This document shows positions 4,594-23,044 of a stretch of 23,044 nt of DNA, piece after piece (positions within the stretch are counted from its first letter, which is position 1; each line of letters begins with the position of its first letter). Below the pieces are notes generated by a model. The model worked only from the letters and a program-made list of their open reading frames with translations. It ran no database searches and had not been told where the DNA came from. The position numbers and the translations under genes are program-made. Source of the stretch: a virus (taxonomy: Duplodnaviria > Heunggongvirae > Uroviricota > Caudoviricetes); the IMG/VR virus record IMGVR_UViG_2740892487_000010. One strand, written 5' to 3'.

Positions 4594-4825
4594 TAATCAT
4601 GTCCACTTTGTCTGCACAGACCGCCCAGGCGGCCTCCGTTTCATCCAGCAACGCATTCAGATCACCGTTAGTGCGCGGTGCTGCCTGCTCCAGCCGACAC
4701 GGCGTCACTCGCGGACAACCACTGACGGTAAGCTGCACCTCCGGTGAGTGCCTGACGTTCCCGCAGCCGGATAATGTCAGCAGGCAAAGGAGTATCAGCC
4801 CAGTGGCGTAAATCCTCGTTCTCAC
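4535..4825 (-). CDS. lysC: Outer-membrane spanin lipoprotein (LysC / Rz1-like), embedded out of frame in the lysB 3' end and extending into R
   Basis: N-terminal signal peptide with lipobox LTLSGC, then a Pro-rich short product; classic embedded o-spanin arrangement; probable GTG start. Confidence 0.6.
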   Translation of the reverse strand: MRTRIYATGLILLCLLTLSGCGNVRHSPEVQLTVSGCPRVTPCRLEQAAPRTNGDLNALLDETEAAWAVCADKVDMIIACQERNSEQTTIPAPRPQ

Positions 4826-5096
4826 GTTTCAGTTCCTCGATCCGGCGTTGTCGTTGTCTCAGCTGTGCGCTGGTCTGTTCTGCTTCGGCATAGAGCCGCG
4901 CCTGCTCCCGGTTATTGGTTTCAGTCAGAATGGACAGGCTGATAAGCTGGCTGTTGCTCTTTGCCAGTGCCTGGCTTTTGCTCTGCAGCTCGTTTGCCTG
5001 CGTGCTGATGGTCTGGCTGGCATCAGCCAGCCGCCACGTCTGCCAGCCCAGCGCCGCTAGTAATAACACCAGCACAACCAGCAGCAACCGGTTCAT
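4668..5096 (-). CDS. lysB: Inner-membrane spanin (LysB / Rz-like)
   Basis: 142 aa, N-terminal transmembrane helix (LLLVVLVLLLAALGW) followed by a charged coiled-coil-like region; ATGA overlap with lysA. Confidence 0.75.
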   Translation of the reverse strand: MNRLLLVVLVLLLAALGWQTWRLADASQTISTQANELQSKSQALAKSNSQLISLSILTETNNREQARLYAEAEQTSAQLRQRQRRIEELKRENEDLRHWADTPLPADIIRLRERQALTGGAAYRQWLSASDAVSAGAGSTAH

Positions 5097-5470
5097 GCTG
5101 CTACCTGTTGCGCCATCTGATTACGGGTGATCCAGAAGGCAATAACGGTCAGTAGATAAAAGACCAGGGTAATAGCCCACCCCGTCCATGCGAGACTTAC
5201 AACAATCAGCAATCGCATCACCCAACTGATAAATACGTTTTCTTTTCGGGTAATTGTCTTCAGCAAAGATGCCCTTAACTCCTGCCAGAGCGGGCCATTC
5301 TGAATTAACGCAGCCAGTGCTACCGGAATTACCGCCCATGTCAGCAAACAGGCTACCCAAACGCCGGACGCTGCCAGTACCGGAAAGATCCCCTGCGGAT
5401 ACACCATTGCTGCGATTAACAGCGCCATCCATAACATCAGAAACAGTCCGCTGATTAATTTCTTTTTCAT
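5093..5470 (-). CDS. lysA: Lysis regulatory membrane protein (LysA-like)
   Basis: Track ORF 5093..5542; probable start at internal ATG about 5470 (MKKKLISGLFLMLW...); several predicted transmembrane helices; position between K and lysB as in P2. Confidence 0.65.
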   Translation of the reverse strand: MKKKLISGLFLMLWMALLIAAMVYPQGIFPVLAASGVWVACLLTWAVIPVALAALIQNGPLWQELRASLLKTITRKENVFISWVMRLLIVVSLAWTGWAITLVFYLLTVIAFWITRNQMAQQVAA

Positions 5471-5471
5471 T

Positions 5472-5984
5472 TCAGTTTGCTCCCTGTAAACACCAGGCCA
5501 TCTCCCGCGCACGGCGGTTATCCAGCCCCTGATTAAACACACCTTTTACATAAACCCAGCGCGGCAACTGTCGGCACGCATCCGCCCAGCGCCGCTGATT
5601 GAGCAATTTCACCAGCGTGGAGCTGCAGGCATTGCCTGTCCCCACGTTGAAGGCAAACGACACCACCGAGTCATACACCTTTTGTGGCGGCTGTTGCTTC
5701 ACACATCTTTCCAGCGCCCGCTCCACACGCAGCACGTTGGAGATAAGCCCTTCTGCTGCCTGTCGTTCCGTAATGGTTTTGCCGGGAATGACGCCCGACG
5801 TATTACCAATGCCGTCAGTCCATACACCCGCGCTGCACTGATACGGCTGCAGACGACAGCCTTCGTAATCGGCAATCAGTTTCAGTCCCTCCACGGAGGT
5901 GTGAAGCTGCTGAAAACCCGGCAGCGTGGCAGCAATAGCCAGCACGGTCCCGACAAGGCAGCGTTTAACGATTGATGGATTCAT
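5472..5984 (-). CDS. K: SAR-type endolysin, T4-lysozyme-like muramidase (P1 Lyz-like)
   Basis: N-terminal weakly hydrophobic SAR-like segment (KRCLVGTVLAIAATLP) followed by EGCRLQPYQCSAGVWTDGIGNT, near-identical to the recalled P1 Lyz catalytic segment (Glu-8aa-Cys-5aa-Thr). Confidence 0.8.
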   Translation of the reverse strand: MNPSIVKRCLVGTVLAIAATLPGFQQLHTSVEGLKLIADYEGCRLQPYQCSAGVWTDGIGNTSGVIPGKTITERQAAEGLISNVLRVERALERCVKQQPPQKVYDSVVSFAFNVGTGNACSSTLVKLLNQRRWADACRQLPRWVYVKGVFNQGLDNRRAREMAWCLQGAN

Positions 5985-7600: not shown

Positions 7601-8659
7601 TTACGCTCCGGTTTCTGCTGCTGCGGCGCTGAAGTCGCCAATCTGGATGTTTTCCACCAGTGCGGCGCAGCGGTAGTCCTCAACCACATAGGCTTCGTTA
7701 ACGGATTCAAAGTTTTCAATCCGGTCACGTTTCGGGTTGTCGATAACTGAGCGGCGGCGGGTGTCTTCCTGCCAGTAGATGGACAGGTTATCCAGACGGG
7801 TGATCAGCAGTGCATTCGGCGGGAAGAACGGCGCACGCACGGCCTGCAGGCCACCCATGCGTTTCTGACTGATGATCATATCGGCAGCCAGTTTTTCACT
7901 GTTTTCCTGCTCTTTGTTGACCAGCGGGAAATACTTGTCAGACAGCAGTTCACGACCGCAAATCACCACCAGATCGTCATCGTCCTGGTAGACCACATCG
8001 ATAAGCTCATTGACGGCATCCATCACCACGGCGTCCAGGTTGGCATATTCGCCACCTTTCCCGACTTTCACCGCACCCGGTGTGGTTTCACCGCCCGTGG
8101 TGGTGCTGCCCATGACGTGATCCGGTGCATCTTCACGGATTTTCTGCAGCCAGCCTTTGTTCACATCCTGCAGCAGCGGGTTTTCGCTACGGCTGGAGGT
8201 TTTCGCACGCTTCACGCCGTTAAAGCCGATCATGATGCGGTCCAGAGCCTGACGTTTCACGATGGCGTCACGGATGCGCACCTGGAAATCCTGAAACTTC
8301 GCCCACAGGTCCAGCTTCGCGTAGGTCAGCACCGTGTCAAAGTTGGTCTGCTCGCATTTATATTCCACATCGACCATCAGCGTCGGATCGACAGGTTCAC
8401 GCTCTTTCGCGGTGGTGTCAGTGGTTCCGGCAATGGTGCTGCCAACTCCCAGCCCCAGCAGCTGACCGGACTGCTCAGTCACTGGCGTGACGTTAATCAG
8501 CGTCAGGAAAGCGGCGGACTGCTGGATCTGGTCTTCCAGCGTCTGCTGCACAGACGGCTCCACGGTGAACTTGCTGGACAGTTCTTCAACTGCCACACCG
8601 TTCAGACGCGCCAGCTGCTGCAGGTAAGCGTTAAAAGCAAAGCGGGTATTCTTCTTCAT
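7601..8659 (-). CDS. N: Major capsid protein (P2 gpN-like)
   Basis: 352 aa; MKKNTRFAFNAYL..., GFNGVKRA, VIISQKR, KLDRIENFESVN and C-terminal GDFS all parallel recalled P2 gpN. Confidence 0.9.
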   Translation of the reverse strand: MKKNTRFAFNAYLQQLARLNGVAVEELSSKFTVEPSVQQTLEDQIQQSAAFLTLINVTPVTEQSGQLLGLGVGSTIAGTTDTTAKEREPVDPTLMVDVEYKCEQTNFDTVLTYAKLDLWAKFQDFQVRIRDAIVKRQALDRIMIGFNGVKRAKTSSRSENPLLQDVNKGWLQKIREDAPDHVMGSTTTGGETTPGAVKVGKGGEYANLDAVVMDAVNELIDVVYQDDDDLVVICGRELLSDKYFPLVNKEQENSEKLAADMIISQKRMGGLQAVRAPFFPPNALLITRLDNLSIYWQEDTRRRSVIDNPKRDRIENFESVNEAYVVEDYRCAALVENIQIGDFSAAAAETGA

Positions 8660-9653: not shown

Positions 9654-11421
9654 ATGAACACCACACTGACACCCGCAGATCTCGATCCCCGTCGGCAGGC
9701 CATGCTGCTGTACTTTCAGGGATACCGCGTAGCCCGCATTGCTGAAATGCTGGGCGAGAAAGTTGCAACCGTTCACAGCTGGAAAAAACGCGACAAGTGG
9801 GGTGACTATGGGCCGCTGGATCAGATGCAGCTCACCACCGCCGCACGCTACTGCCAGCTCATTATGAAGGAGCACAAAGAAGGGAAAGATTTCAAAGAAA
9901 TTGACCTGCTGGCGCGCCAGTCGGAGCGCCACGCGCGGATCGGCAAGTTTAACAATGGCGGCAACGAAGCCGACTTAAACCCTAACGTCGCCAACCGCAA
10001 CAAAGGCCCGCGCCGTCAGCCGGAAAAGAATGTTTTCACCGATGAACAGATAGAGAAACTGGAAGAAATCTTCCATTCCTCCATGTTCAACTACCAGCGC
10101 CACTGGTGGGAAGCCGGAAAAACCAACCGCATCCGCAACCTGCTGAAGTCACGCCAGATCGGCGCGACCTTTTACTTTGCCCGTGAAGCCCTGATTGACG
10201 CCCTGCTTACCGGACGTAACCAGATTTTCCTTTCTGCCAGTAAGGCACAGGCTCACGTCTTTAAGCAGTACATCATCGACTTCGCCAAAGAAGTCGAGGT
10301 GGAGCTGAAAGGCGATCCGATGGTGCTTCCTAACGGGGCCACGCTTTACTTCCTCGGCACCAATGCCCGCACGGCGCAGAGTTACCACGGCAACCTGTAT
10401 CTGGATGAATATTTCTGGATACCGAAATTCCAGGAGTTGCGCAAAGTGGCTTCCGGTATGGCTATTCACAAGAAATGGCGACAAACCTATTTTTCCACGC
10501 CATCCAGCCTGACCCACAGTGCTTATCCGTTCTGGTCCGGTGCGCTGTTCAACCGTGGACGCAACAAAGCTGACAAGGTGGACATCGACCTGTCCCACAG
10601 CAATCTGGCCCCCGGCCTACTGTGCGCAGACGGGCAATACCGCCAGATAGTCACCGTGGAAGATGCGGTGCGCGGCGGCTGTAACCTGTTCGACCTCGAC
10701 CAGCTGCGCATGGAGTACAGCCCGGACGAATACCAGAACCTGCTGATGTGCGAGTTCGTGGACGATCTCGCGTCCGTGTTCCCGCTCAGCGAACTGCAGG
10801 CGTGCATGGTGGACAGCTGGGAAGTCTGGACCGACTTTCATGCACTGGCCCTGCGCCCGTTTGGCTGGCGCGAAGTGTGGATCGGTTATGACCCGGCAAA
10901 AGGTACGCAGAACGGCGACAGTGCCGGATGCGTGGTGGTGGCTCCGCCAGCCGTGCCGGGTGGTAAGTTCCGCATTCTTGAGCGTCACCAGTGGCGCGGG
11001 ATGGACTTCCGCGCCCAGGCTGACGCCATCAAAAAACTGACCGAACAGTATAACGTGACCTATATCGGTATCGACTCGACCGGCGTCGGTCACGGGGTTT
11101 ACGAGAACGTGAAAGCGTTTTTTTCCTGCCGTCAGGGAGTTTGTCTATAACCCCAACGTTAAAAACGCCCTGGTACTCAAGGCCTACGACATTATCAGCC
11201 ACCGCCGTCTGGAGTTTGACGCCGGGCACACCGACATTGCGCAGTCATTTATGGCAATCCGTCGCGCTACCACTGCCAGTGGCAACCGCCCGACCTATGA
11301 AGCCAGCCGCAGCGAAGAAGCCAGCCATGCCGATCTGGCCTGGGCAACAATGCACGCACTGTTTAACGAACCGCTGCAGGGCGAGTCCGCCAATACCAGC
11401 AATATTGTGGAGATTTTTTGA
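9654..11421 (+). CDS. P: Terminase large (ATPase) subunit (P2 gpP-like), frame interrupted near 11118-11124
   Basis: Track ORF 9654..11150 (498 aa) ends prematurely; the conserved C-terminus (VYNPNVKNALVLKAYD...NIVEIF) continues in another frame to TGA at about 11419-11421 overlapping the Q start. A run of 7 T where 6 T would give KAFFPAVREFVYNPN; corrected length about 588 aa. Confidence 0.85.
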
Positions 11422-12460
11422 TGGGAAAGAGTAAGAAGAACCGCGCTGCGTCGACGAAACAGATCCAGCATAAAAGCCAGACTTCAGCCGAAGCATTCAG
11501 CTTCGGTGATCCCGTTCCTGTTCTGGACCGCCGCGAACTGCTGGACTATGTGGAATGCGTACAGATGGATCGTTGGTACGAGCCGCCTGTGAGTTTCGAC
11601 GGACTGGCGCGAACCTTCCGCGCCGCCGTGCATCACAGCTCACCGATTGCAGTGAAGTGCAACATTCTGACCAGCACCTACATCCCTCACCCGCTGCTCA
11701 GCCAGCAGGCTTTTTCGCGTTTTGTACAGGACTATCTGGTTTTTGGTAACGCCTACCTGGAGAAACGCACGAACCGCTTCGGTGAAGTTATCGCCCTTGA
11801 GCCTGCACTGGCAAAATACACCCGACGCGGGTTAGACCTTGATACCTACTGGTTTGTGCAATACGGCATGACTACGCAGCCGTATCAGTTCACGAAAGGC
11901 AACATTTTTTTCATCTGATGGAACCGGACATCAACCAGGAGATCTACGGCCTGCCTGGTTATCTTTCTGCCATTCCGTCAGCTCTGCTCAACGAGTCCGC
12001 CACGCTGTTCCGCCGCAAGTATTACATTAACGGCAGTCATGCAGGCTTCATCATGTACATGACCGATGCAGCGCAGAACCAGGAGGATGTGAACAACCTC
12101 CGCAATGCGATGAAAAGCGCCAAAGGTCCTGGTAACTTCCGTAACCTGTTTATGTACTCGCCTAACGGTAAAAAGGACGGGCTTCAGATTATCCCGTTGT
12201 CAGAAGTGGCGGCGAAGGATGAGTTCCTGAATATCAAGAACGTGAGCCGGGACGACATGATGGCGGCGCATCGTGTGCCGCCACAAATGATGGGGATAAT
12301 GCCTAATAATGTCGGGGGGTTTGGGGATGTGGAGAAGGCCAGCCGTGTATTCGTCCGAAATGAGCTAATGCCACTACAAAAGCGATTACAGGAGATGAAT
12401 GATTGGCTTGGCAAGGAGGCGATACAGTTTAATACCTACTCGCTAGATATAGTCCCATAA
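11421..12460 (+). CDS. Q: Portal protein (P2 gpQ-like), frame interrupted near 11905-11911
   Basis: Track ORFs 11418..11918 and 11918..12460 together about 346 aa; a run of 7 T where 8 T would give ...GNIFFHLMEPDINQEIYGLPGYL...; N-terminal MGKSKKNRAAST... is portal-like. Confidence 0.85.
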
Positions 12461-12463
12461 TAA

Positions 12464-12490
12464 GAAAAGCCACCGTTTGGTGGCTTTTCT
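12464..12490. terminator. Bidirectional rho-independent terminator between convergent Q and the cargo operon
   Basis: AAAAGCCACC-gttt-GGTGGCTTTTCTT: GC-rich hairpin flanked by an A-run and a T-run, directly after the Q stop and before the minus-strand ORF stop at 12495. Confidence 0.7.
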
Positions 12491-12494
12491 TCAT

Positions 12495-13236
12495 TTACTC
12501 AATAGGTTCAAACTCATCCTGAGGAATCAGCGTCGATTGACAGGCTTGGCTTAGTACTCCTGATAATTTACATAATAACCGATAGTTATGAGGAGCATCA
12601 TCGCTAATCTTTTCGACCGTTAAAGTGATTGATTTTGGATCATCCAATAACATCTTCTTGATATCATTACTTAAATACCTAGGGCAGTAACCAACGATTT
12701 CAGCTGGTTTATCTGCACGAACGACAACAGCATCCCCATCGTATTCATTTTGAAGATCCAAGCAAAGACGCAAAATTTGCCCCGGTTTCAATTCAGATAC
12801 ACGAGCATTAGCTAAGCTATTTAAGTAACCAAGTCCATGTAAGAAGAAAAAATGCTCAAAGTTACCATCAGAATCAACATCAATTTTTTTTGAAAATCTG
12901 CAGCTGATCAGTGCTTCGTAAGCCTCCCGAGCGAGCAAGAATATCGATAGGATTTACCTTATCTTCTTCAAATCCAAGCCATTTAATGAAACTCGGATAC
13001 TCTGGACGTCTCGGTGATAAAAGGCGATTTTTAAAAAGAGGAAACAATTCTTCCGAAACATAAGTTTCACGAACATCACTCATGCCGCTAAACTTTGTAA
13101 ATTTAGTAGATTTAAGAGCACCTTTGGTATACCTGAAAACATACCCCGATTTGCGCTCTTGCAAGTTACCAACAACATGCCAGTCTCTGGTATCTGGTGC
13201 CTGCCATGCGACGTAAACGGAGTTTGTATTAGTCAT
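12495..13236 (-). CDS. HipA N-terminal-subdomain-like (HipS-like) domain joined to a C-terminal HIRAN-like domain; frame interrupted at an A/T homopolymer (track ORFs 12880..13236 and 12495..12938)
   Basis: N-part VGNLQERKSGYVFRYTKGAL...ELFPLFKNRLLSPRR...DILARSGG parallels the HipA N-terminus (VGELTKLANGAHTFKYAPEWL...AVFNFFDNLLPDSP...DLLSEIGRDSVG). C-part LRLCLDLQNEYDGDAVVV...EIVGYCPRYLSNDIKKML resembles the HIRAN signature. ATG at about 13234-13236 overlaps the kinase stop (ATGA). The distal ORF lacks an ATG (TTG only) and the frames switch at an 8-nt homopolymer near 12884-12891. Confidence 0.6.
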
Positions 13237-14147
13237 TCTAGTAACCTTCTGCGATTTTCCATTACCATTAACGTTGCAAATCTACGTGCACTGTCGGATA
13301 TACACGATGAAGGCACTTGGTTAAACACATCTGTAATGGAATCTTCTGTTAAAACGCTCAACTTACCTAACCAATGGTCGCGAGCGGCAACTCTCCCTTC
13401 AACTGCATGTTGAAATGCTTCAACGGTCAGCAAGGGCTTTTTATCAGTTTTTGCTTTGAATAGCTCAGAGCGAGCTTTTCTTACAAAACATGGGATTTGT
13501 CGATTTTTATCTTTAGTATTAAGCCGTTCGTTACGCTCATCATCTAACATCTCCCTTCCTAAACTAGCGGCATGATCGTATGTTGGACACAAAAACTGCT
13601 CACCAGTTTCATTGTTAAGCATGATCGCCCAATTTTCATGATGGCGATCTTGATTACTCACAAGTGCATCGAGCATCAAAAATCCACAAAATACATCTGC
13701 TGCATTTAGCCCGGTTAGATCATATACACTCGGAGGAGGCTTGATAGATTCCCTATCTAAACAACCCAATACCCTTGTGACAGTGTGTTCTCTGACCCTT
13801 ACCGGCTTTTCCCCGGCTTGTAAAGGCCCTGGATAATCGAATGTCGAACTGTGAAGCACTTCATTTCCCATTACCATCCGGAAACCAGATGGAATGATAT
13901 TCTGAGTCACCACACCGAATCGACCATTGTATCGCGCCAAATCATAGCTAGCATGTGGAATGTTAAGCAAATGACATAACTCAGCAGCACACTTTTCAGA
14001 CCAATGCTCGCCAGTACCTGGCCTAGAGTACTTAAACAACTGCAAATTTACAGTGTCATCGGAGAAATAGAACCAAAACTTCTCTTTGGTTCCTAACTGT
14101 TCAAGATCGTTAGCTACGGGGCTAAGCTCTACCAATTGGTATGGCAT
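13233..14147 (-). CDS. HipA-family Ser/Thr protein kinase core (HipT-like, lacks the N-terminal subdomain)
   Basis: 304 aa; Gly-rich loop LGTKEKFWF (compare HipA VAGAQEKTAL), catalytic motif LVSNQDRHHENWAIM (compare HipA GATDGHAKNFSV), metal-binding motif LCPTYDHAAS (compare HipA TPFYDIIS); ATG with AGGGA ribosome-binding site. Confidence 0.7.
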   Translation of the reverse strand: MPYQLVELSPVANDLEQLGTKEKFWFYFSDDTVNLQLFKYSRPGTGEHWSEKCAAELCHLLNIPHASYDLARYNGRFGVVTQNIIPSGFRMVMGNEVLHSSTFDYPGPLQAGEKPVRVREHTVTRVLGCLDRESIKPPPSVYDLTGLNAADVFCGFLMLDALVSNQDRHHENWAIMLNNETGEQFLCPTYDHAASLGREMLDDERNERLNTKDKNRQIPCFVRKARSELFKAKTDKKPLLTVEAFQHAVEGRVAARDHWLGKLSVLTEDSITDVFNQVPSSCISDSARRFATLMVMENRRRLLE

Positions 14148-14299
14148 CTGACATCCCTGTTTAGCGGATTATGAATAAGTTAGGTTCCATTTTATCCAAA
14201 CATTGTCAAATACTCTAAGATTTATTAGATGATAGAGCGATACTGTATGCATGTCCAGCAATCAAATCAATATATAACTCTTATATGACTTAGCGCGCG

Positions 14300-14322
14300 C
14301 TCGTATCCCCGCCACGCCTGCC
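14300..14322. other. Putative cos (cohesive end / terminase recognition) site
   Basis: Minus-strand GGCGTGGCGGGGA... matches the first 13 nt of the 19-nt cohesive end as I recall it for 186/P2 (GGCG(T/A)GGCGGGGAAAGCA.); the 3' part diverges; lies between the tum-like gene and the portal gene as in 186. Confidence 0.4.
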
Positions 14323-14363
14323 CGCTTTATGTAGTGGTTTTCATGCAGGTGCATGATCTACGC

Positions 14364-14387
14364 AAAAGCCCGCCAGTTCTGGCGGGC
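14364..14387 (-). terminator. Hairpin with T-run on the minus strand (possible terminator insulating cos and the cargo operon from leftward read-through)
   Basis: GCCCGCCA-gttc-TGGCGGGC stem-loop preceded on the plus strand by AAAA, i.e. followed by TTTT on the minus strand. Confidence 0.35.
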
Positions 14388-14660
14388 CTTAGCGAAAACG
14401 ATCCTCAAACGATCATGCAATCTCATGCAGCATAGACATGCACAGACGAGTAAAGCGAATCGGACCTTACGCAAGGTGAACTCCTCAGCGGGCATAATCA
14501 GTATGTCGGAAGATCTCTAAAAATAAATAATTCGGTTAACAGGTATGCTTACAAAAGCATATATTTGATTAAAAATCATGTAAGGGGGAGGATCTCAAAC
14601 TGAATCGCCACGGGTTTTACAAATTTCGATAGTCTCTCTAACGTTTCGGCTGAGGTCAAA

Positions 14661-15086
14661 ATGAAAAGCTTTTACGTATTAATTTTAATTCTGGTTGCAA
14701 GCTTTGTTAGCGTCCCAGTTCAGGCGGTAACAGCTAAAAACTATGAGAAAGGAACTAAAGCTCAACAGAAATCAATATCTTACCTTTCATGTGCATTCTA
14801 TGGCAGTAGCACACAATTAGATCCTAGCTACACGGAGCAAGTACCTACAGCCGATATCAAGATATTACAGAAAGCAGCTTACCACGCTTACAACGATGCG
14901 CTCTCATACTTTGGCTATGAGGAACCAGATCACGAACAACGCATAATTGATTATGCTGAATTTGTGGCGTCGCAAGAAGCTGTGTTATGGGATAAGCCGG
15001 GAATGAATGGAAAGCAGGTAACACTAATTGCTCGTTCTCTCTACAATGAGAGTAACTGTAACTTGTTACTGGACTCAATTAAGTAG
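14661..15086 (+). CDS. Secreted/periplasmic protein of unknown function (cargo gene)
   Basis: 141 aa; N-terminal signal peptide MKSFYVLILILVASFVSVPVQA; AT-rich codon usage unlike the phage core; GAGG ribosome-binding site; possible promoter TTTACA-17-TAACGT at about 14616-14644. Confidence 0.55.
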   Translation: MKSFYVLILILVASFVSVPVQAVTAKNYEKGTKAQQKSISYLSCAFYGSSTQLDPSYTEQVPTADIKILQKAAYHAYNDALSYFGYEEPDHEQRIIDYAEFVASQEAVLWDKPGMNGKQVTLIARSLYNESNCNLLLDSIK

Positions 15087-15245
15087 GAAAAAGATGGTAT
15101 TTTGCCCGTAGTTTCAACCTTAATCTCCGAACCTGTCGCAGAACGGGCGTTCACTCATCAAATAAACGCCACACCTAACGCCTCACTGTACTCGTTGTTC
15201 AACCTTGCTGACGCCAGAACCAAGTTCAGACGCCAGCAACTTTTC

Positions 15246-15479
15246 TTAATGCAGCCAGCTGTCGTCTTCCCACACCTTCTGCATAATCTTCATCACTTGT
15301 TTTCTTTCTTCGTCCAGTTGCAGTCCGGTCAGTTCCACACCGTTAGAGCTACCTTTGCGGATGCGAATTACCATTTTGGGATACAGGGGGCGCAGATTGC
15401 GGTAAAGCTCGGATTCAAGGGCGTCCAGGGTAGACTGGCTAATCTTCTGCTCTTTATCGATCATTATTTCAATGCGCAT
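15246..15479 (-). CDS. DinI-family protein, likely SOS-inducible antirepressor (phage 186 Tum-like)
   Basis: Track ORF 15246..15551; DinI-like core starts at ATG about 15479 (MRIEIMIDKEQ...LDALESEL...WEDDSWL) with AGGTGA ribosome-binding site; LexA box upstream; same position as tum in 186. N-terminal extent uncertain. Confidence 0.6.
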   Translation of the reverse strand: MRIEIMIDKEQKISQSTLDALESELYRNLRPLYPKMVIRIRKGSSNGVELTGLQLDEERKQVMKIMQKVWEDDSWLH

Positions 15480-15719
15480 AAAGGTCACCTCAGCTGATGA
15501 CATCCATTGAGCGGTTGTATTCGTGGGTTCTGATTTTTGCCATGAGTTCATCAGTCAATTCAGAAACCCACTGCAGAGCCAGCCCCTTCTCTTCATCACT
15601 ACACTCACTAGCCGCTACAAGCTTAAGAAAAAAAATCAATGCGCTGGAGCTTCAAAGACTCCAAAAAATAGTCCTGCATCTTTCCTCCTATGACACCAAA
15701 GCAATACTGTATATATAAC

Positions 15720-15739
15720 CACTGTTTATATTTACAGTA
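15720..15739. promoter_or_regulatory. LexA operator (SOS box)
   Basis: cACTGTTTATATTTACAGTa fits CTGT-N8-ACAG with an AT-rich spacer; adjacent partial half-site TACTGTATATATAACC; between the end of A and the DinI-like gene. Confidence 0.65.
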
Positions 15740-15831
15740 TATAATAATCTTACTGATGTAAAACGTTTTTTTACGTTCATCAGCCTGAAATGCCTGGTAT
15801 TATTAAGAGCACGAATTGTTAACCCGCGTAA

Positions 15832-18247
15832 TTAATACAGGTTTCGCCACTTATCATCTTCCTGCAAACGCTGGTTCCGATAGAAGATACGCAGGCCTGC
15901 TCCTGACGGAATACTGCCGCCGCGAAGCAGTAAATCGACCTCTTTCTCGCTGCCATCAAATCCCCTGGACTTCAGTTCATACACGAGCTGCTGTCGCTGA
16001 TGATCTGTAATTCGCTGTTTGTAGTCTTTACGCCGTTTCGGTTTCACCAGGCGTAACCTTGCTGCCAGTTCCCGGCGCTCTTTTTTGCTCATACTGTGCA
16101 GGTAATCGTGCAACTCCTTGTCATCCATGCGGGTGATATCCGTTCTGGTATCTCCATCAGCTGATTTGTCTTTCCCTTGTTGGTACAAATTTTCAGCAAG
16201 GGGACAGTTATTGCCACGAGTCCAAGGGGCGCAAGCGCCCTGGTCGGCTGCCGCCTCCTGAACGTCAACGGCCTTACGAACCATTTTCCACTTCACTGCA
16301 TGAGTGCAGATCTTGCCCTCTGCAATGGGTGACCAGATGCCATAAATACGAATACCGTGATCGCCATAGGCGGTTGGCTCTTCGTTTATTTCATAAGCGG
16401 TTCTGATGAGGTGATATTTGCGGGGAACCAGTACGCCGCCCTGCTTCATGATGTAAGTGGCAAAACAACCAGCATCAGCAGCAGCCAGGATGGCATCAAG
16501 GCGCGGGTTATCCAGTACCGGCGCACCTGCTTTTTTGTCACCCTGTTGCCTTGCCGCCTGACCAGCCAGCAATCGCAGTTCACGGTAAGCCTGACGCCCC
16601 GGAATGCCAAAGAAGCGGAATTGCTGAACACGATGCAGAGACGCCCAGGCATTAACGTATTCAGCGTTATCACGCAGGGATTTACCCGTTTCCTTACTGA
16701 TCTCGCCAGCCAGACCACGCCCGTCAATATTCTTACTGATATATTTCGCAATGTAGCTTGTCGGCGTTCCTTTGCGCGGGTTTATCAGCTCAGACTTAAA
16801 GCGTGGCCCCGTGTTATTGCCCAGCTCCTCGCGGTCTTCACGGATGGCAAACTTACGCAACAATGCAGTAATGGCGCGGCGGTCTTTTTTTGCGCATGAA
16901 ACACAACAGGTGCCAGTGAACTGTGCCGTCATGATGCGGCTCAGCCACCCGCACGCCATACCAGCGCAACCCGGCTTTGTGCATAGCCTTACGAAATGCA
17001 GCAAACATGCCGACCAGATAATCGCTGCTTTGTCTTACTGTCGCGTTGGTCCAGGTCGGGTTTGGCCTGCCGTTATTTAGCGTGGAATGGAAACGTGACG
17101 GACAGGTGATGGTGTAGAAAACGGCGCAGTCACCACGCATTTCCGCGATAAGCTCCAGACCTTTAACACAGGCCATCATCTCGTTGCGGCGATGCGCCGG
17201 GTTGCTGCTGCTGGCGTTTACCACATCCTCCATGTCCAGCGTGTCGCCGTCTTCGTTCACCAGTTCATGAGAACGGAAAAACTCCAGCGACTTACGGCGC
17301 TGCTCACGTTTATGCATCACGGCTTCATAGCTGACATAGGGAGATGCTTTTTTGCTGACCAAGCAGACAGCACGCAACTGCTCTTCCCGCCATTCGCAAC
17401 GCATCTTCCATAATTTCCGATACCACCAGTCGGCACACAACATACGCGCCAGCGAACCCGGAATGAGTTCATAGGGCACGGGTTTACGGCGGTTTCTTTT
17501 CCGACGGAGTTGCTCAAACGCAGGCGGAATAACATCCAGACGCAGGGTTTCCGCTGCCACCTTTTCCCATGTTTTGCGGATTTCTTCTGGCTTAACGTCA
17601 TCGGTGGCATACAAATCACCACAAGCGGCATCAAGGCACATGCTCATATGCGCAGCGACAAGGGTAGACAGGCGCTTCACCTGATCCTGACTCATTTCAG
17701 GCAGGATAAGCAGGCCGTCCAGCCCTTCATGGCTTGCCATAAAACGAAAAGATGCAGATAGCTGGCTGTCGCGTACATGCTCCAGTCGTTCCAGACATGG
17801 CTTAATTGTCTCACGTAAATAGCGGGAATAAGCCTTTGGCCTGCACAGGCTGCTGAAGTATTCAATACGTTGCATCAGCGGCTTGCTGATATGGGAAGGC
17901 TGGGCGTTGACGTCCGCCAGAATGACCATATCCGGATTAAAACGCTGCTGCTCATGCGCCAGCTTTGCCCGGCTAATGAGCTTATCCTGCTCCATTTCGC
18001 GCTGGACAGGATCACGTGATTCATTAAAAAAATAACGCTCCCAGACCTGATCACTCAGTGCCTCGCGGCGCAGTTGTTCCTGCTCGTTATCGGCAGCGTA
18101 CAGAGTGATCAGGTTTGAAAGCGCAGAAACCGGCGCAACTTCCGCCGGGTCCAGATAAGGGTTAATGGCCTTTTTCGGGCTGTTCCATGAGAACGCTGCG
18201 GCAGCCTCGTTAAAGCCGCAGCAGTTGTTCATATCGGCATGACTCAT
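15832..18247 (-). CDS. A: Replication initiation protein (P2 gpA-like rolling-circle endonuclease), frame interrupted near 16885-16891
   Basis: Track ORFs 16853..18247 (464 aa) and 15832..17004 (390 aa) overlap; HUH-like GTVHWHLL motif; a 7-nt homopolymer where 6 would give ...[22 protein letters not shown]...; ATGA overlap with the dam stop. Confidence 0.8.
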
Positions 18248-19101
18248 GCACGTACTCCGTACACGGCTGAACTATCCACGCCACGCGAAGGATCAAATCC
18301 CACCCAGCAGCGCGGCCCGGAAACAGCGATGATTTCTGTTGCAGATTTACTCTCACCAGCTGCCACACCGATGCTGCGTTTTGCCTTGATGTAGTGGTGA
18401 GTAAAATTGCGATACAGCGAACGGATCAGGGATGTGTCACTGTTAGAAACAATGACCGGATATCCTTCTGATGATCGATGTTCAAGAACGGATGCCAGGT
18501 GATACTGGTCATCTTCAGTGAAACCATCAGTGTGATAGCCGGAAAACGTACCGTCATACGGCGGATCGCAATACACCACATCCCCCACCTGCAGCATCGC
18601 CAGCGTTTCATCAAAGCTGGCGCAGATAAACGTTGCCCGCTGGGCTTTCTCTGCAAATGCGCGAATTTCTTTTTCAGGGAAATACGGATTTTTATAATTA
18701 CCGTACGGAATGTTGAAATGCCCGCTCTTGTTATAGCGACATAACCCACGGTAACCATGACGATTGAGATACAGGAAATATATCGCTTTCATGAAATCAG
18801 TAATTTCAGTGGAGTAATTAAACTCCTGCCTTATGTTGTAATAAGCCACATCCCTGTTTGCTTCCTCAAATAAAGCTCTGGCACGAGATATAAACGCCTC
18901 GCAATCAGCAGCAACCTTTTTATAGAGGTTGATTAAATCAGGATTAATATCCGCAACAAGATAGCTGGGGTAATCCGTCTCCATCATCACAGCACAGGAA
19001 CCCGCGAAAGGTTCAACCAGTCGCGGGCCAGCAGGAAGATGTTTTTTCAGTTCGGACATAATGGCGGTTTTATTTCCCGCCCATTTCAGGATGGTGCTCA
19101 T
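18244..19101 (-). CDS. dam: DNA adenine (N6) methyltransferase, Dam-like
   Basis: Track ORF 18244..19161; likely start [11 protein letters not shown] at about 19101; catalytic DPPY motif ([10 protein letters not shown]); AdoMet-binding EPFAGS-type N-terminus. Confidence 0.85.
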
Positions 19102-19325
19102 ACAGCACCTCCGTTGTAATGTTTGCCTTTCAGCTCTGCGATTTCCTGACAGGTAATGCAAAGCTGCACACCCGGAATGGCACGGCGGCGTGCTGGCGGA
19201 ATTGGCGCTTCACACTCAATGCAAAGCACGCGGGACACGCCCGGCGTTTTGGCACGGGCAGCACGGATATGGCGTTGGCGTTCTTCTTCAACGCGCTGCT
19301 GTACGAGATCCATTGCATCAGCCAT
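19098..19325 (-). CDS. TraR/DksA-family C4 zinc-finger protein
   Basis: 75 aa with CIECEAP...CITCQ (CxxC-N17-CxxC); common small gene in P2-like early operons. Confidence 0.7.
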   Translation of the reverse strand: MADAMDLVQQRVEEERQRHIRAARAKTPGVSRVLCIECEAPIPPARRRAIPGVQLCITCQEIAELKGKHYNGGAV

Positions 19326-19967: not shown

Positions 19968-20161
19968 TTGTTCCCCCGTTTTTTCGTAGATAGTTCTGCC
20001 AGCAATTCATCTTGTGAACGGCACGGATGCCAGCGTTTACCATCCTCCCCCATGATCCAGCCGTGACCGTAATGCATTGCCGGGCTTTGTTTAACCAGCA
20101 GCGATGCAAATGATGGTTCTTTCGTCAGCATAAGCACCTCACAGCAAACCAAATGAAGCAC
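19931..20161 (-). CDS. Hypothetical small early protein (position of 186 fil)
   Basis: 76-aa track ORF; true start probably the internal Met (MLTKEPSF...) at about 20131, since the upstream part overlaps cII. Confidence 0.35.
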   Translation of the reverse strand: MLHLVCCEVLMLTKEPSFASLLVKQSPAMHYGHGWIMGEDGKRWHPCRSQDELLAELSTKKRGNKWLLKALRRLFH

Positions 20162-20654
20162 CGAGGCCAGTCACGGTATCAACTGCACTCGCCATCGCAG
20201 GATTAGCCTGTAAACGGGCCTGCAATGAAACAGCCGCCAGCGCCATCAGTCGTGTTACAGAGTTAATGCTGCTGATAGCATCACGACGACCGGCACAGGT
20301 TTTTACATCGCCAGACACCGCACCTGCAGCAACACGCCCGATCTCTGCGGTTGCACTCATGACGTAATGTGGCAGTTTCTCTTTTGCCACCTCATTAATC
20401 GGTACACATGGCAGACAATGAATCTGTGCCAGAAAACCATCTACCAGCGTTGAATCTTCAGTCAGATCGGTAAGCAGCCAGATTTCTGGTGCGGTTAATA
20501 AATGAGGCTGAGCTGGGTTCAGCTTGTTCCGCAGAATCTGCACATTCATGCCTGCACGTTCTGCCAGTTGCACCAGATTGTGGCGCAGTGCAAATGCACG
20601 ACAGGCTTCATCAAAATGTGGATGTTTGGAAACTTGGTAATCAAACATGGTCAA
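20139..20654 (-). CDS. cII: CII-like transcriptional activator (phage 186 CII family)
   Basis: 171 aa; [20 protein letters not shown]...LRNKLNP...[25 protein letters not shown]...NPAM...GASFGL closely parallels the 186 CII sequence as recalled. Confidence 0.65.
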
Positions 20655-20680
20655 TGCCTCTGATGTATTTCAGAATCGAA

Positions 20681-20902
20681 CTAATTAAGGTTTAGATTGC
20701 ATTCTGAAAGCGCATCAACGGTCATTGCTGCTATGTTGATCATCACTTTTTCGCGTTTTTTATCTTTGCGCAGACGGTGACGGATAAGGCGTCCATCAGC
20801 CAACATGTCATTGATGGTATCGATGGATAGCCCTGTCAGCTCGCTATAGCGTTCAATAGTCACATGAGGCGTGGTAAGAGTGATTGAAATGTTAGGTCTC
20901 AT
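20681..20902 (-). CDS. apl: Apl/Cox-like small DNA-binding protein (excisionase and lytic-promoter regulator)
   Basis: 73 aa, first gene of the leftward early operon, divergent from cI; HTH-like [21 protein letters not shown]. Confidence 0.55.
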
Positions 20903-21027
20903 GATGCAACATTCCTCGTTTAATGATGATTAATCAGGACGAATACGGATCGTTTGTATTTTGTGAACACCATAAACATACGATCGCACGGTGAAATCGT
21001 CAAGATAAAAGTTCACTTGGAGTGACC
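20903..21027. promoter_or_regulatory. Divergent pR/pL switch region with candidate operators
   Basis: 125-bp AT-rich gap between divergent apl-like and cI; perfect palindrome TGATTAATCA at about 20926-20935 and inverted repeats GATCGTTTGTAT / ATACGATCG. Confidence 0.4.
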
Positions 21028-21597
21028 ATGAATTTGGAGAAAGGCGGACGAGGCGCCATAGAGCGCATGGTAGAAGCTTATGGATTCAAGACTCGACAGG
21101 CGTTGTGCGATCATTTAGGAATCTCTAAAAGTACACTCGCCACACGCTACATGCGTGACTCATTCCCAGCAGAATGGGTAATCCAGTGCGCCCTTGAAAC
21201 AGGCACCTCGCTTAATTGGCTCACAACCGGGCATGGTTCAAAGCAAACTTCAGGTAATACAAATACTATGGAAGTTGCTAAATATGTATTATCTGATGGG
21301 GCCTTGTGTGAAGACGGTTTTTATATTTTCGATAGAGAATTTCTACCGTCGGCATTCAAGAATCTTTTTGTAATCACAGATAATAATTCTGAATTTATTT
21401 GTGATAAGGAATTTGATGATATACGTGATGGTAAATGGGTAATAAGTATTGATGGCGAAATAACGATCCGTGACATTACTCGTTTACCCGGTGGAAGAAT
21501 CTTCGTCGAGGGTGGAAACAGAGCCTTTGAATGTAAGATAGAAGACATTGAAATAATTGGTAAAATTATAAGTTTAACAGTCAAGTATGTTAAATAG
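21028..21597 (+). CDS. cI: Immunity repressor, phage 186 CI-type
   Basis: Track ORF from GTG 21022; likely ATG at 21028 with GGAG ribosome-binding site; AYGFKTRQALCDHLGISKSTLATRYMR...CALETGTSLNWLTTGHG matches the 186 CI N-terminal domain pattern. Confidence 0.75.
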   Translation: MNLEKGGRGAIERMVEAYGFKTRQALCDHLGISKSTLATRYMRDSFPAEWVIQCALETGTSLNWLTTGHGSKQTSGNTNTMEVAKYVLSDGALCEDGFYIFDREFLPSAFKNLFVITDNNSEFICDKEFDDIRDGKWVISIDGEITIRDITRLPGGRIFVEGGNRAFECKIEDIEIIGKIISLTVKYVK

Positions 21598-21612
21598 TAC
21601 CGGGAGAAAATT

Positions 21613-21804
21613 ATGCTTGGTAAGGTATTTTTTGTGGTTTTGTCATGTTCTTTGTTATTAAACCCACTAGCTACCTATGCTAGAAATTATCCCTGCTCAG
21701 GGAAAAAGGGAGGTGTTTCTCACTGTACCTCTGATGGCAAATTCGTTTGCAATGATGGAACTATTAGTAAATCCAAAAAAATCTGTACTAAAAACTCACG
21801 ATAA
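21613..21804 (+). CDS. Small secreted cysteine-rich protein (candidate moron/lysogenic-conversion gene)
   Basis: 63 aa; signal peptide [23 protein letters not shown]; mature peptide of about 40 aa with 5 Cys; GGGAGA ribosome-binding site; sits between cI and int. Confidence 0.5.
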
Positions 21805-21992
21805 CTTTTGCTTTTATATCTGCGCCTAAAATAAAAATGAGCCACAGGTTAACCGCAAAAGTTACATGATCACATAGCAAAAAGAATAGCCTACTTCATT
21901 ATGGCTTCAGTGAGATGTATGGTCGCAGGATTTCATACATTGACACTGGTTATACATACAGTAAAAATGCTCTCTATTGGAGGGCATTTTTT

Positions 21993-23044
21993 ATGGCTGT
22001 ACGAAAACTCACCACAGGAAAATGGCTTTGCGAATGTTACCCCGCCGGACGTAGTGGGCGTCGTGTGCGTAAACAATTCGCCACCAAAGGCGAAGCACTG
22101 GCTTTTGAGCGTCACACGATGGAAGAAACCGAAGCAAAGCCCTGGCTAGGTGAATCAGTGGATCGTCGAACACTGAAAGACGTGGTTGAGCTATGGTTCA
22201 AACTACATGGTAAATCACTGACTGCTGGGCAGCATGTCTATGACAAATTGCTGCTGATGGTTGACGCTCTGGGCAATCCCCTTGCAACTGATCTAACCTC
22301 TAAAATGTTTGCCCACTATCGAGATAAACGCCTGACAGGTGAGATCTACTTCAGCGAGAAATGGAAGAAAGGAGCAAGCCCGGTCACCATTAACCTGGAG
22401 CAAAGCTATCTAAGTAGTGTTTTTAGCGAACTATCCCGCCTGGGCGAATGGTCGTATCCGAACCCACTGGAGAACATGCGAAAATTCACCATCGCAGAAA
22501 AAGAGATGGCATGGCTTACCCATGAGCAGATTGTTGAATTACTGGCTGATTGCAAACGTCAGGACCCAATTCTGGCACTGGTAGTTAAGATATGCTTAAG
22601 CACAGGCGCACGCTGGCGAGAAGCCGTAAATCTTACTCGTTCACAGGTGACCAAATACCGAATTACCTTTGTAAGAACGAAGGGGAAGAAAAACAGAAGC
22701 ATCCCTATCAGTAAAGAGCTTTACGAAGAGATCATGGCGCTTGATGGGTTCAATTTCTTCACAGACTGCTATTTTCAATTTTTATCCGTGATGGAAAAAC
22801 GTCTATCGTGCTCCCTCGCGGTCAACTCACACACGTTCTGCGCCATACGTTTGCGGCGCACTTCATGATGTCGGGTGGAAACATTCTGGCCTTACAAAAA
22901 ATTCTCGGACACCACGATATAAAAATGACTATGCGTTACGCACATCTGGCACCGGATCATCTGGAAACGGCGCTCCGTTTCAATCCTCTGGCAACGCTGC
23001 CAAGTGGCGACAAAGTGGCGGCAGCGGTTGGCATTACCCCGTAA
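21993..23044 (+). CDS. int: Tyrosine integrase (P2/186 Int family), frame interrupted near 22780-22800
   Basis: Track ORF 21915..22868 with likely start MAVRKLTTGKW at 21993 (GGAGGG ribosome-binding site), plus ORF 22808..23044 carrying LPRGQLTHVLRHTFAAHFMMSGGNILALQKILGHHDIKMTMRYAHLAP (catalytic R, H-x-x-R, Y). Adding one A to the A5 run at about 22795-22799 gives ...MEKTSIVLPRGQ... Stop is at the window end. Confidence 0.85.

Follow-up and report, generated by a model that had tools for sequence, protein, structure and literature searches.

Two accessory-gene slots around a conserved cos island at the cos-proximal hotspot of a 186/P2-like prophage

The IMG/VR virus record IMGVR_UViG_2740892487_000010 is a stretch of 23,044 nt (the whole of which we call the window) that presents the standard P2 map in reverse complement. 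Its Pfam matches for portal, gpA, DinI, CI/CII, Dam and integrase mark it as a 186/P2-like (Peduoviridae) prophage with the 186-type layout. The subject of this work is the interval between its portal gene and its DinI-family gene, 12461-15245, which an earlier note on this DNA had described as a cargo hotspot straddling the cos site. We find that the interval is almost certainly the cos-proximal accessory-gene hotspot of these phages, known as the gpQ-gpA locus, as 'moron position 1' and as the 'P2 defence hotspot'. Both the locus and its exact combination of genes have already been catalogued, and it is no new kind of element; added here are its split into two slots around a conserved cos island, the cargo-specific terminators on its portal side and the structural conservation of a hairpin within the cos island. 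The features of the locus, with lengths of proteins in amino acids (aa), are these:

11418-12460, plus strand: portal gene (gpQ/W homologue), the left conserved flank; Pfam Phage_portal; split at 11918 by a homopolymer frameshift
12461-14292: slot 1 cargo, a 1.8-kb cassette with hipIN, its inner edge 7 bp from the cohesive-end sequence
12462-12491, no strand assigned: bidirectional intrinsic-terminator-like hairpin in the 34-nt convergent gap from the portal stop to the hipN stop
12495-13236, minus strand: hipN, whose N-terminal domain is HipS-like and whose C-terminal one is HIRAN; PADLOC PDC-M03B; split into 12880-13236 and 12495-12938
13233-14147, minus strand: hipI, a small HipA-superfamily Ser/Thr kinase of 304 aa; PADLOC PDC-M03A, E = 1.4e-121; phrog_8728
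14229-14257, minus strand: sigma-70-like promoter candidate for hipIN, TGGACA-17-TATCAT, 10/12 in a consensus scan, inside the cargo
14293-14443, no strand assigned: cos island of 151 bp between both cargo slots, with the cohesive-end homologue, five CATGCA/TGCATG repeats and the conserved hairpin
14300-14318, no strand assigned: 19-nt cohesive-end homologue CTCGTATCCCCGCCACGCC, reverse complement GGCGTGGCGGGGATACGAG, by alignment to the annotated cosL/cosR of P2 and the cos of 186
14364-14390, minus strand: conserved cos-island hairpin with a short U-tract, from folding and covariation, 46 nt from the cohesive end
14444-15174, plus strand: slot 2 cargo cassette of 731 bp, its inner edge 125 bp from the cohesive-end sequence
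14536-14565, plus strand: sigma-70-like promoter candidate for the slot-2 gene, TTAACA-18-TATATT, 10/12 in a consensus scan
14661-15086, plus strand: gene for a 141-aa predicted exported all-helical protein, WP_000834899.1 family, phrog_7437, oriented as P2 old
15175-15245, minus strand: conserved region 3' of dinI with a weak hairpin, bounding slot 2 on the right; most relatives are homologous again from 15175
15246-15551, minus strand: DinI-family gene, the right conserved flank; Pfam DinI, E = 1e-22; annotated in relatives as 234 nt, 15246-15479, 77 aa
15722-15737, no strand assigned: LexA-box-like CTGT-N8-ACAG upstream of the orf63-dinI operon, read from the sequence, in a position analogous to that of the LexA site at 186 p95

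The interval occupies the portal-to-gpA position, as seen from Pfam matches to Phage_portal, Phage_GPA, the P2 capsid and the terminase, and is syntenic with annotated Peduoviridae. Its composition sets it apart from the phage core, as the earlier note had said: in a 400-bp composition plot the G+C content (GC) falls to 0.38-0.46 over ~12400-16000, against 0.53-0.62 in the structural genes. The open reading frames (ORFs) also lie as that note had placed them, with a kinase module on the minus strand on the portal side of cos and the gene for an exported protein on the plus strand on the other side.

Comparison with relatives revealed that the two sides of cos carry exchangeable cargo. We used 15 annotated relatives found with BLAST, the cos loci of IMG/VR and 5426 complete E. 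coli genomes. Three conserved blocks recur in the 15 relatives, namely the portal gene up to 12379-12450, the stretch from 14292/3 to 14441/3, and the DNA from 15175 (or 15236/15248) onward, and the DNA between these blocks is unrelated among relatives with different cargo. In slot 1 the relatives carry AIPR/Abi-alpha, a retron St85 reverse transcriptase with its effector, TIR, Hypoth_Ymh, DUF262, DUF4062, PIN, DUF4145, DUF6953 and other genes in place of the window's kinase module. Slot 2 is empty in four relatives (L003, L004, L005 and L011), with only the 7 bp TACAGAG between the blocks, and in others holds a restriction endonuclease with an ASCH protein, or hypothetical proteins. Close phages therefore differ in what they carry here and share only the flanks and the cos island, the outcome expected of the cargo-swapping slot that the earlier note had proposed. 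That note had named two findings that would count against it, the same genes in all related phages or a cos-like sequence that is not the packaging site; instead, the genes of the relatives differ and the cos-like sequence is homologous to the mapped cos of P2 and 186.

The two slots assort independently, because an identical HipN (WP_000185757.1) is paired with five slot-2 states, one of them empty, and an identical 141-aa protein (WP_000834899.1) with five other slot-1 cargos. The flanks are present in 1295 of the 5426 E. coli genomes, with 100% query coverage in one record (LR-71-1) and at least 80% in eleven. In the IMG/VR sample slot 1 ranges from 60 to 4383 bp and is 'empty' in ~24 of 83 loci, which, like P2 and 186, have there ~165 bp with a terminator only; slot-1 cargos of at least 500 bp fall into 46 clusters among 55 sequences. 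Cargo GC lies below that of the adjacent core gene in all 54 slot-1 cases (0.37 vs 0.53) and in all 46 cases on the gpA side (0.43 vs 0.54). The cargo was recovered in complete E. coli genomes and IMG/VR contigs, and neither cargo segment had a megablast match in the INPHARED phage collection. In E. coli SW071614 (L014), a hipIN carrier, the variable region is larger; dinI is absent, with orf63 alone left, and a truncated portal gene abuts a VgrG/Pvc8-family pseudogene, for which reasons we regard this prophage as rearranged. In Escherichia phage 500465-1 (L003) an IS21-family element (IS100kyp-type istA/istB fragments, 4662-5894) interrupts the gpA region, and the portal annotation is also split.

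Between the slots lies the predicted packaging site. For the cos comparison, circularised junctions were made from the annotated ends of P2 (NC_001895) and 186 (NC_001317), and 14300-14318 aligns column for column with the cohesive ends of both, with an identity to 186 of 15/19; the surrounding motifs, GCGCGC and TGCCCGCTTTATG..GTTTTCATGCA, are conserved as well. This match to annotated cohesive ends supports the earlier note in reading the cos-like sequence as a packaging-site homologue. We take 14300-14318 as the predicted cos, at which we infer cleavage, and it puts the variable locus adjacent to cos. With the 17-mer CCCCGCCACGCCTGCCC as a pattern, 120 IMG/VR stretches were retrieved; 117 of these have the cos island, and in every stretch that includes the flanking genes, portal is on the left (plus strand) and gpA on the right (minus strand). 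The island is 92-97% identical among relatives with differing flanking cargo. Five of the 13 CATGCA/TGCATG hexamers in the window fall within it, at 14342-14355 and 14414-14443 (~0.09 expected by chance), and may be repeats that terminase recognises; among relatives, the palindrome CATGCA-NN-TGCATG has either GG or CC at its centre. A plus-strand ORF of 55 aa (14353-14520) that overlaps the cos-island hairpin has no family match and is most likely spurious.

The slot-1 module is, by architecture and motifs, hipIN (PDC-M03), its accession being unconfirmed in the data set of Gerdes et al. These authors defined hipIN as a short HipI kinase gene followed by hipN, whose product joins a HipS-like domain to HIRAN (PMC8262856). 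The window's kinase, at 304 aa, is within the 279-321 aa of the family, has the core motifs and is without the HipA N-subdomain 1, and the gene downstream of it encodes HipS-like and HIRAN domains. In Pfam, HIRAN scored 52.7 bits on HipN, above threshold, and two matches were below threshold, Couple_hipA on HipN (17.9 bits) and HipA_C on HipI (20.6 vs a threshold of 30.5 bits). The two halves of hipN align to positions 1-117 and 114-241 of the 245 in the PDC-M03B profile, and the intact product in relatives is a protein of 246 aa, WP_000185757.1. An AlphaFold (AF2) model of HipI from 47 homologues (predicted local distance difference test score, pLDDT, 84.6) has as its top Foldseek matches, at a probability of 1.00, CtkA of H. 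pylori, HipA, and the HipT chain in structures of its complex with HipS; three motifs are invariant in the 47 homologues, GTKEKF (the Gly-rich loop), DRHHENW (the catalytic loop) and YDHA. A PDB sequence search gave no significant match for HipI or HipN, so that HipI is placed by the fold search alone, and NCBIfam gave no match for any cargo protein.

The kinase-HIRAN bicistron, in which stop and start overlap, is preserved in an E. coli island, on the V. cholerae chromosome and beside an integrase in Ectopseudomonas, and because it is kept in such unrelated contexts hipIN is, as far as gene order tells, a self-contained mobile cassette. It shares with the modules described by Gerdes et al., with PDC-M03 and with the 'HIRAN-kinase' of Rousset et al. 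the short 304-aa HipA-homologous kinase, the core motifs and the overlapping gene for HipS-like and HIRAN domains, and differs from them in that the window's hipN is interrupted by a homopolymer frameshift. With hipBST and hipBA it has in common the kinase fold and an N-subdomain-like polypeptide supplied in trans; unlike them it has no HipB helix-turn-helix partner, its kinase gene comes first and HIRAN is joined to its HipS-like domain. E. coli also has, outside P2-like prophages (L142-L144, 5001-6663), a second variant of hipIN whose kinase shares 71% identity with that of the window; it adjoins a two-partner-secretion/contact-dependent-inhibition-type locus and, in one genome, also an archaeo-eukaryotic-primase-type primase gene.

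The single gene of slot 2 encodes a 141-aa protein with a hydrophobic signal-like segment at its N terminus, MKSFYVLILILVASFVSVPVQA, ending in VQA. Its model is an all-helical bundle (pLDDT 76) whose structural matches are non-specific, and phrog_7437 is a family of unknown function. The family is tiny, with 13 representatives among 1.84 billion proteins, and the named sources of the close homologues are all enterobacteria. In Hafnia alvei (L020, 6001-6426, SITA01000031.1) a homologue with 77% identity occupies another of the accessory slots of a P2-like prophage, that from gpS to gpV, where its neighbours are two further unannotated ORFs, and because of this change of slot the gene can be said to behave as a moron. 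We would give little credence to any specific function proposed for the protein.

The hairpins at the locus were judged by explicit folding with shuffled controls and by covariation. That at 12462-12491 has a perfect 13-bp stem, a 4-nt loop and U-tracts on both strands and folds at -20.4 kcal/mol (z = -7.4) on the plus and -21.0 kcal/mol (z = -6.2) on the minus strand, none of 200 shuffles being as stable. It thus has the hairpin and U-tract of a putative intrinsic terminator in either direction, and the bidirectional terminator that the earlier note had seen at 12464-12490 is a real hairpin by these measures. In the 14 relatives examined, every distinct slot-1 cargo comes with a portal-side hairpin of its own, differing sequence, except in L018, where the gap is 14 nt; evidently, a predicted bidirectional terminator is kept with each cassette in place of tQ or tW. 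Rfam gave a far-sub-threshold match, on the terminator hairpin only, from which we conclude that there is no retron or other known non-coding RNA at the locus.

The second hairpin lies within the cos island. On the minus strand, positions 14365-14390 fold at -26.5 kcal/mol (z = -4.5) with UUUU following, a weak version of the terminator pattern. In a set of 104 distinct cos regions pairing holds in 80% of cells, compared with 32-43% in slid controls, both-sided changes are found in 7 of the 8 pairs, and none of 500 shuffles reaches the observed covariation. The hairpin is likely a minus-strand terminator, predicted from its structure, for SOS or early transcripts running toward cos. The earlier note had made a minus-strand hairpin with a T-run at 14364-14387 one boundary of the cargo; the structure stands, and the boundary role falls, since the hairpin lies inside the interval, within the conserved cos island. 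A consensus terminator scan listed neither 12462-12491 nor 14364-14390, and it may have missed the former since its A/T runs pair and so lengthen the stem. A further hairpin, after the dinI stop (15190-15235), was considered as a terminator and rejected, being no better than shuffles (z = -1.8).

On the right flank, the DinI-family gene aligns in BLASTP only to residues 71-145 of 186 Tum (40% identity). The description 'tum-like' was therefore too generous: the gene corresponds to the DinI-like C-terminal half of Tum alone, and the antirepressor N-terminal half is unmatched. Because of the LexA-box-like site upstream, the orf63-dinI operon is probably SOS-induced, and it would be transcribed toward cos.

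The locus has been described before. In P2-like phages the cos-proximal gpA-gpQ locus was identified as a hotspot by Rousset et al. 2022, who give 1,650 arrangements for 18,150 E. coli loci and whose Table S5A lists the window's arrangement, WP_001154434 + HipI + WP_000185757 + WP_000834899 + DinI; their Table S6 has a 'HIRAN-kinase' system in a Vibrio prophage hotspot (PMC9122126). Wiles et al. 2013 named the same locus 'moron position 1' (PMC3573123), and a 2026 survey presents it as the main P2 defence hotspot (PMC13586616). What these sources report of the known hotspot, its position between portal and replication genes, adjacency to cos, extreme variability, AT-rich cargo and defence-type content, is shared by the window. 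They treat gpA-gpQ as one locus (PMC9122126, PMC3573123, PMC13586616), whereas here it resolves into two slots that flank the 151-bp cos island, and the portal side has terminators specific to each cargo.

P2 has old and tin between gpA/orf91 and its right cos end, on a transcript that begins close to cos and leads away from it; the gpA side of 186 reads tum, t95a, orf97, t95b, cos. Slot 2 resembles both in holding accessory genes between replication/SOS genes and the right-hand cos end, and P2 old has its own promoter and is transcribed away from cos, as is predicted for the 141-aa gene. The portal side of P2 and 186 is occupied by terminators alone (tQ and tW), in contrast to the 1.8-kb cassette here, and these terminators have their positional counterpart in the hairpin at 12462-12491. 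The earlier note's equation of the interval with the old/tin slot of P2 thus suits slot 2, with its exported-protein gene oriented as old, and fails for the kinase side, which in P2 and 186 is empty save for terminators. The cargo ORFs have no AAA/OLD-family match in Pfam and no PADLOC match beyond PDC-M03, no direct comparison with Old or Tin being made; the equivalence to old/tin is positional only and holds for slot 2 only.

How the cargo moves, and whether this copy of the prophage is intact, can each be read in more than one way. The junctions of the slots are precise and recurrent: 14292/3 is the edge in all ten relatives whose slot-1 cargo is unlike the window's, and 14441-3 and 15175 are the edges in most of those that differ in slot 2. 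Such junctions could point to a dedicated mobile-element mechanism, whether transposition, integron-like capture or site-specific recombination, which we nevertheless consider very unlikely. There are no target-site duplications or inverted repeats at the slot-2 junctions, and by ORFs and Pfam searches neither slot has a recombinase or transposase gene; slot 1 has a diffuse left junction (12379-12450, within the last ~10-80 nt of the portal gene, where the C-terminal ~25 portal residues change with the cargo), as expected of recombination in diverging homology, and the sharp right junctions are explicable by purifying selection on cos. Because target duplications, inverted repeats and recombinase genes are missing from the borders, we think it probable that recombination in the flanks is the mechanism of exchange. 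As to the state of this copy, against its closest relative (E. coli LR-71-1, L010; 97.3% identical over 6.7 kb) the window has five homopolymers longer by 1 or 2 nt, T7 at 11118-11124, T7 at 11905-11911, T8 at 12884-12891, A8 at 15628-15635 and T7 at 16885-16891, which break the terminase, portal, hipN, orf63 and gpA genes. The portal indel is at 11910-11911, in a gene that is a single ORF of 1026-1047 nt in relatives, and the split of hipN is due to one extra T in the run at 12884-12891. Five frameshifts in a span of 6.7 kb, of which three hit essential genes, might suggest a decaying remnant, with dead cargo in a dead phage. We regard this as unlikely: the expansions strike five of the six homopolymer runs of at least 7 nt in the compared segment, there are no other indels in genes (one 1-nt deletion, at 15698, is intergenic), and the remaining sequence is 97-99% identical to intact relatives. 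Because all five indels expand such runs and genes have no others, the frameshifts are probably homopolymer sequencing or assembly errors, and decay of this copy would in any case leave the identity of the locus unchanged.

The roles given to the cos-island hairpin and to hipIN are less settled, and several observations count against the parts assigned to them here. The U-tract after the cos-island hairpin has only 4 nt, its wobble pairs (61 on the plus vs 35 on the minus strand) do not favour a minus-strand RNA, and its covariation fits a palindromic DNA-binding site equally well; the promoters and terminators of the locus are consensus or structure predictions only, and the consensus scan gave fewer promoter-like sites than shuffles do. 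For hipIN, our literature search yielded no experiments on hipIN or PDC-M03, a real frameshift in hipN could leave the window's module non-functional, and the one HipA-containing system from the P2 hotspot that Rousset et al. cloned, pFR108 ('Exonuclease + HipA'; PMC9122126), differs from hipIN and itself matches none of the three newly validated systems in section 10 of that paper. It is accordingly possible, if not the reading we would choose, that the hairpin at 14364-14390 is a palindromic DNA element of the packaging site that binds terminase or a host factor: besides the short U-tract and the wobble counts, its distance from the cohesive end is 46 nt and it belongs to the conserved island, its central GCCAG-N-CTGGC is the best-conserved part, and the 186-like cos subgroup keeps the palindrome without the A-run. 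What favours a terminator instead is that an A-run of at least 3 stands immediately 5' of the stem on the plus strand, giving a minus-strand U-tract, in 48 of the 61 well-paired versions (the window's subgroup), compared with none that have a T-tract after the stem on the plus strand; that the stem sequence varies with pairing kept; and that when slot 2 is empty the hairpin comes ~100 nt downstream of the dinI stop, where a terminator is expected. That hipIN is an anti-phage module seems to us about as likely as not. A plain addiction toxin-antitoxin pair that stabilises the prophage by post-segregational killing would suit the HipA/HipT-type toxin fold of the kinase, the HipS-like domain as an analogue of the HipS antitoxin, and the stand-alone two-gene insert in the V. 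cholerae chromosome, which is outside any obvious defence island. Addiction as the sole role nonetheless seems rather unlikely, as the alternatives in the slot are overwhelmingly of defence type (retron, TIR, AIPR/Abi, DUF4062), PADLOC lists hipIN as a defence candidate, and a HIRAN DNA-end sensor has no obvious part in addiction; the two roles are not mutually exclusive.

The remainder of the window carries the following genes, assigned with Pfam:

7601-8659, minus strand: P2-type capsid gene
9654-11150, plus strand: large terminase
15832-18247, minus strand: replication protein gpA
18244-19161, minus strand: Dam methylase
20139-20654, minus strand: CII/CP76
21022-21597, plus strand: CI repressor
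21915-22868, plus strand: integrase

A second GC dip, to 0.42-0.46, coincides with the Dam gene, a D12-class methyltransferase gene on the minus strand directly downstream of gpA, and this region (18244-19161) may be a further accessory insertion. The lowest GC of the window, 0.36-0.45, is found at 20600-22000, in the CI repressor gene and upstream of the integrase, and is typical of an immunity/integration module.

From these elements we propose how the locus might work. Cassettes would be swapped by homologous recombination in the 3' end of the portal gene, in the cos island and in the region 3' of dinI. The terminators would keep transcripts of the late operon and of the SOS/early operon out of the cargo and from crossing cos, the one in the cos island stopping LexA-controlled orf63-dinI transcripts, and possibly those of the early operon, before they reach cos and slot 1; with such insulation the cargo would therefore be expressed from its own promoters in the lysogen. 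hipIN would act as a toxin-antitoxin-like abortive-infection module, in which free 3' ends in the DNA of an invading phage are sensed by the HIRAN domain and the kinase is released, as Gerdes et al. proposed without experiments for phage DNA ends (PMC8262856). By analogy with HipA acting on GltX and HipT on TrpS, the released kinase would phosphorylate an essential translation factor, and the exported protein of slot 2 might be a lysogenic-conversion factor acting in the envelope. We hold the account as a whole with high confidence, and its single steps with the separate strengths given above. It is doubtful, in comparison, that two further propositions are jointly true, that the position at cos is mechanistic and more than just tolerated, with terminase-made ends, the two termini of the packaged chromosome, stimulating recombination, and that hipIN is an abortive-infection system sensing DNA 3' ends.

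The locus is a reliable place for finding prophage-borne defence and conversion genes, and its two-slot structure with reproducible junctions provides precise anchors for cargo mining and for the engineering of P2-like phages. As a DNA-end sensor that would control a HipA-type kinase, and one that recurs at this hotspot, hipIN (PDC-M03) is a reasonable candidate for defence assays. [quoted passage not shown]

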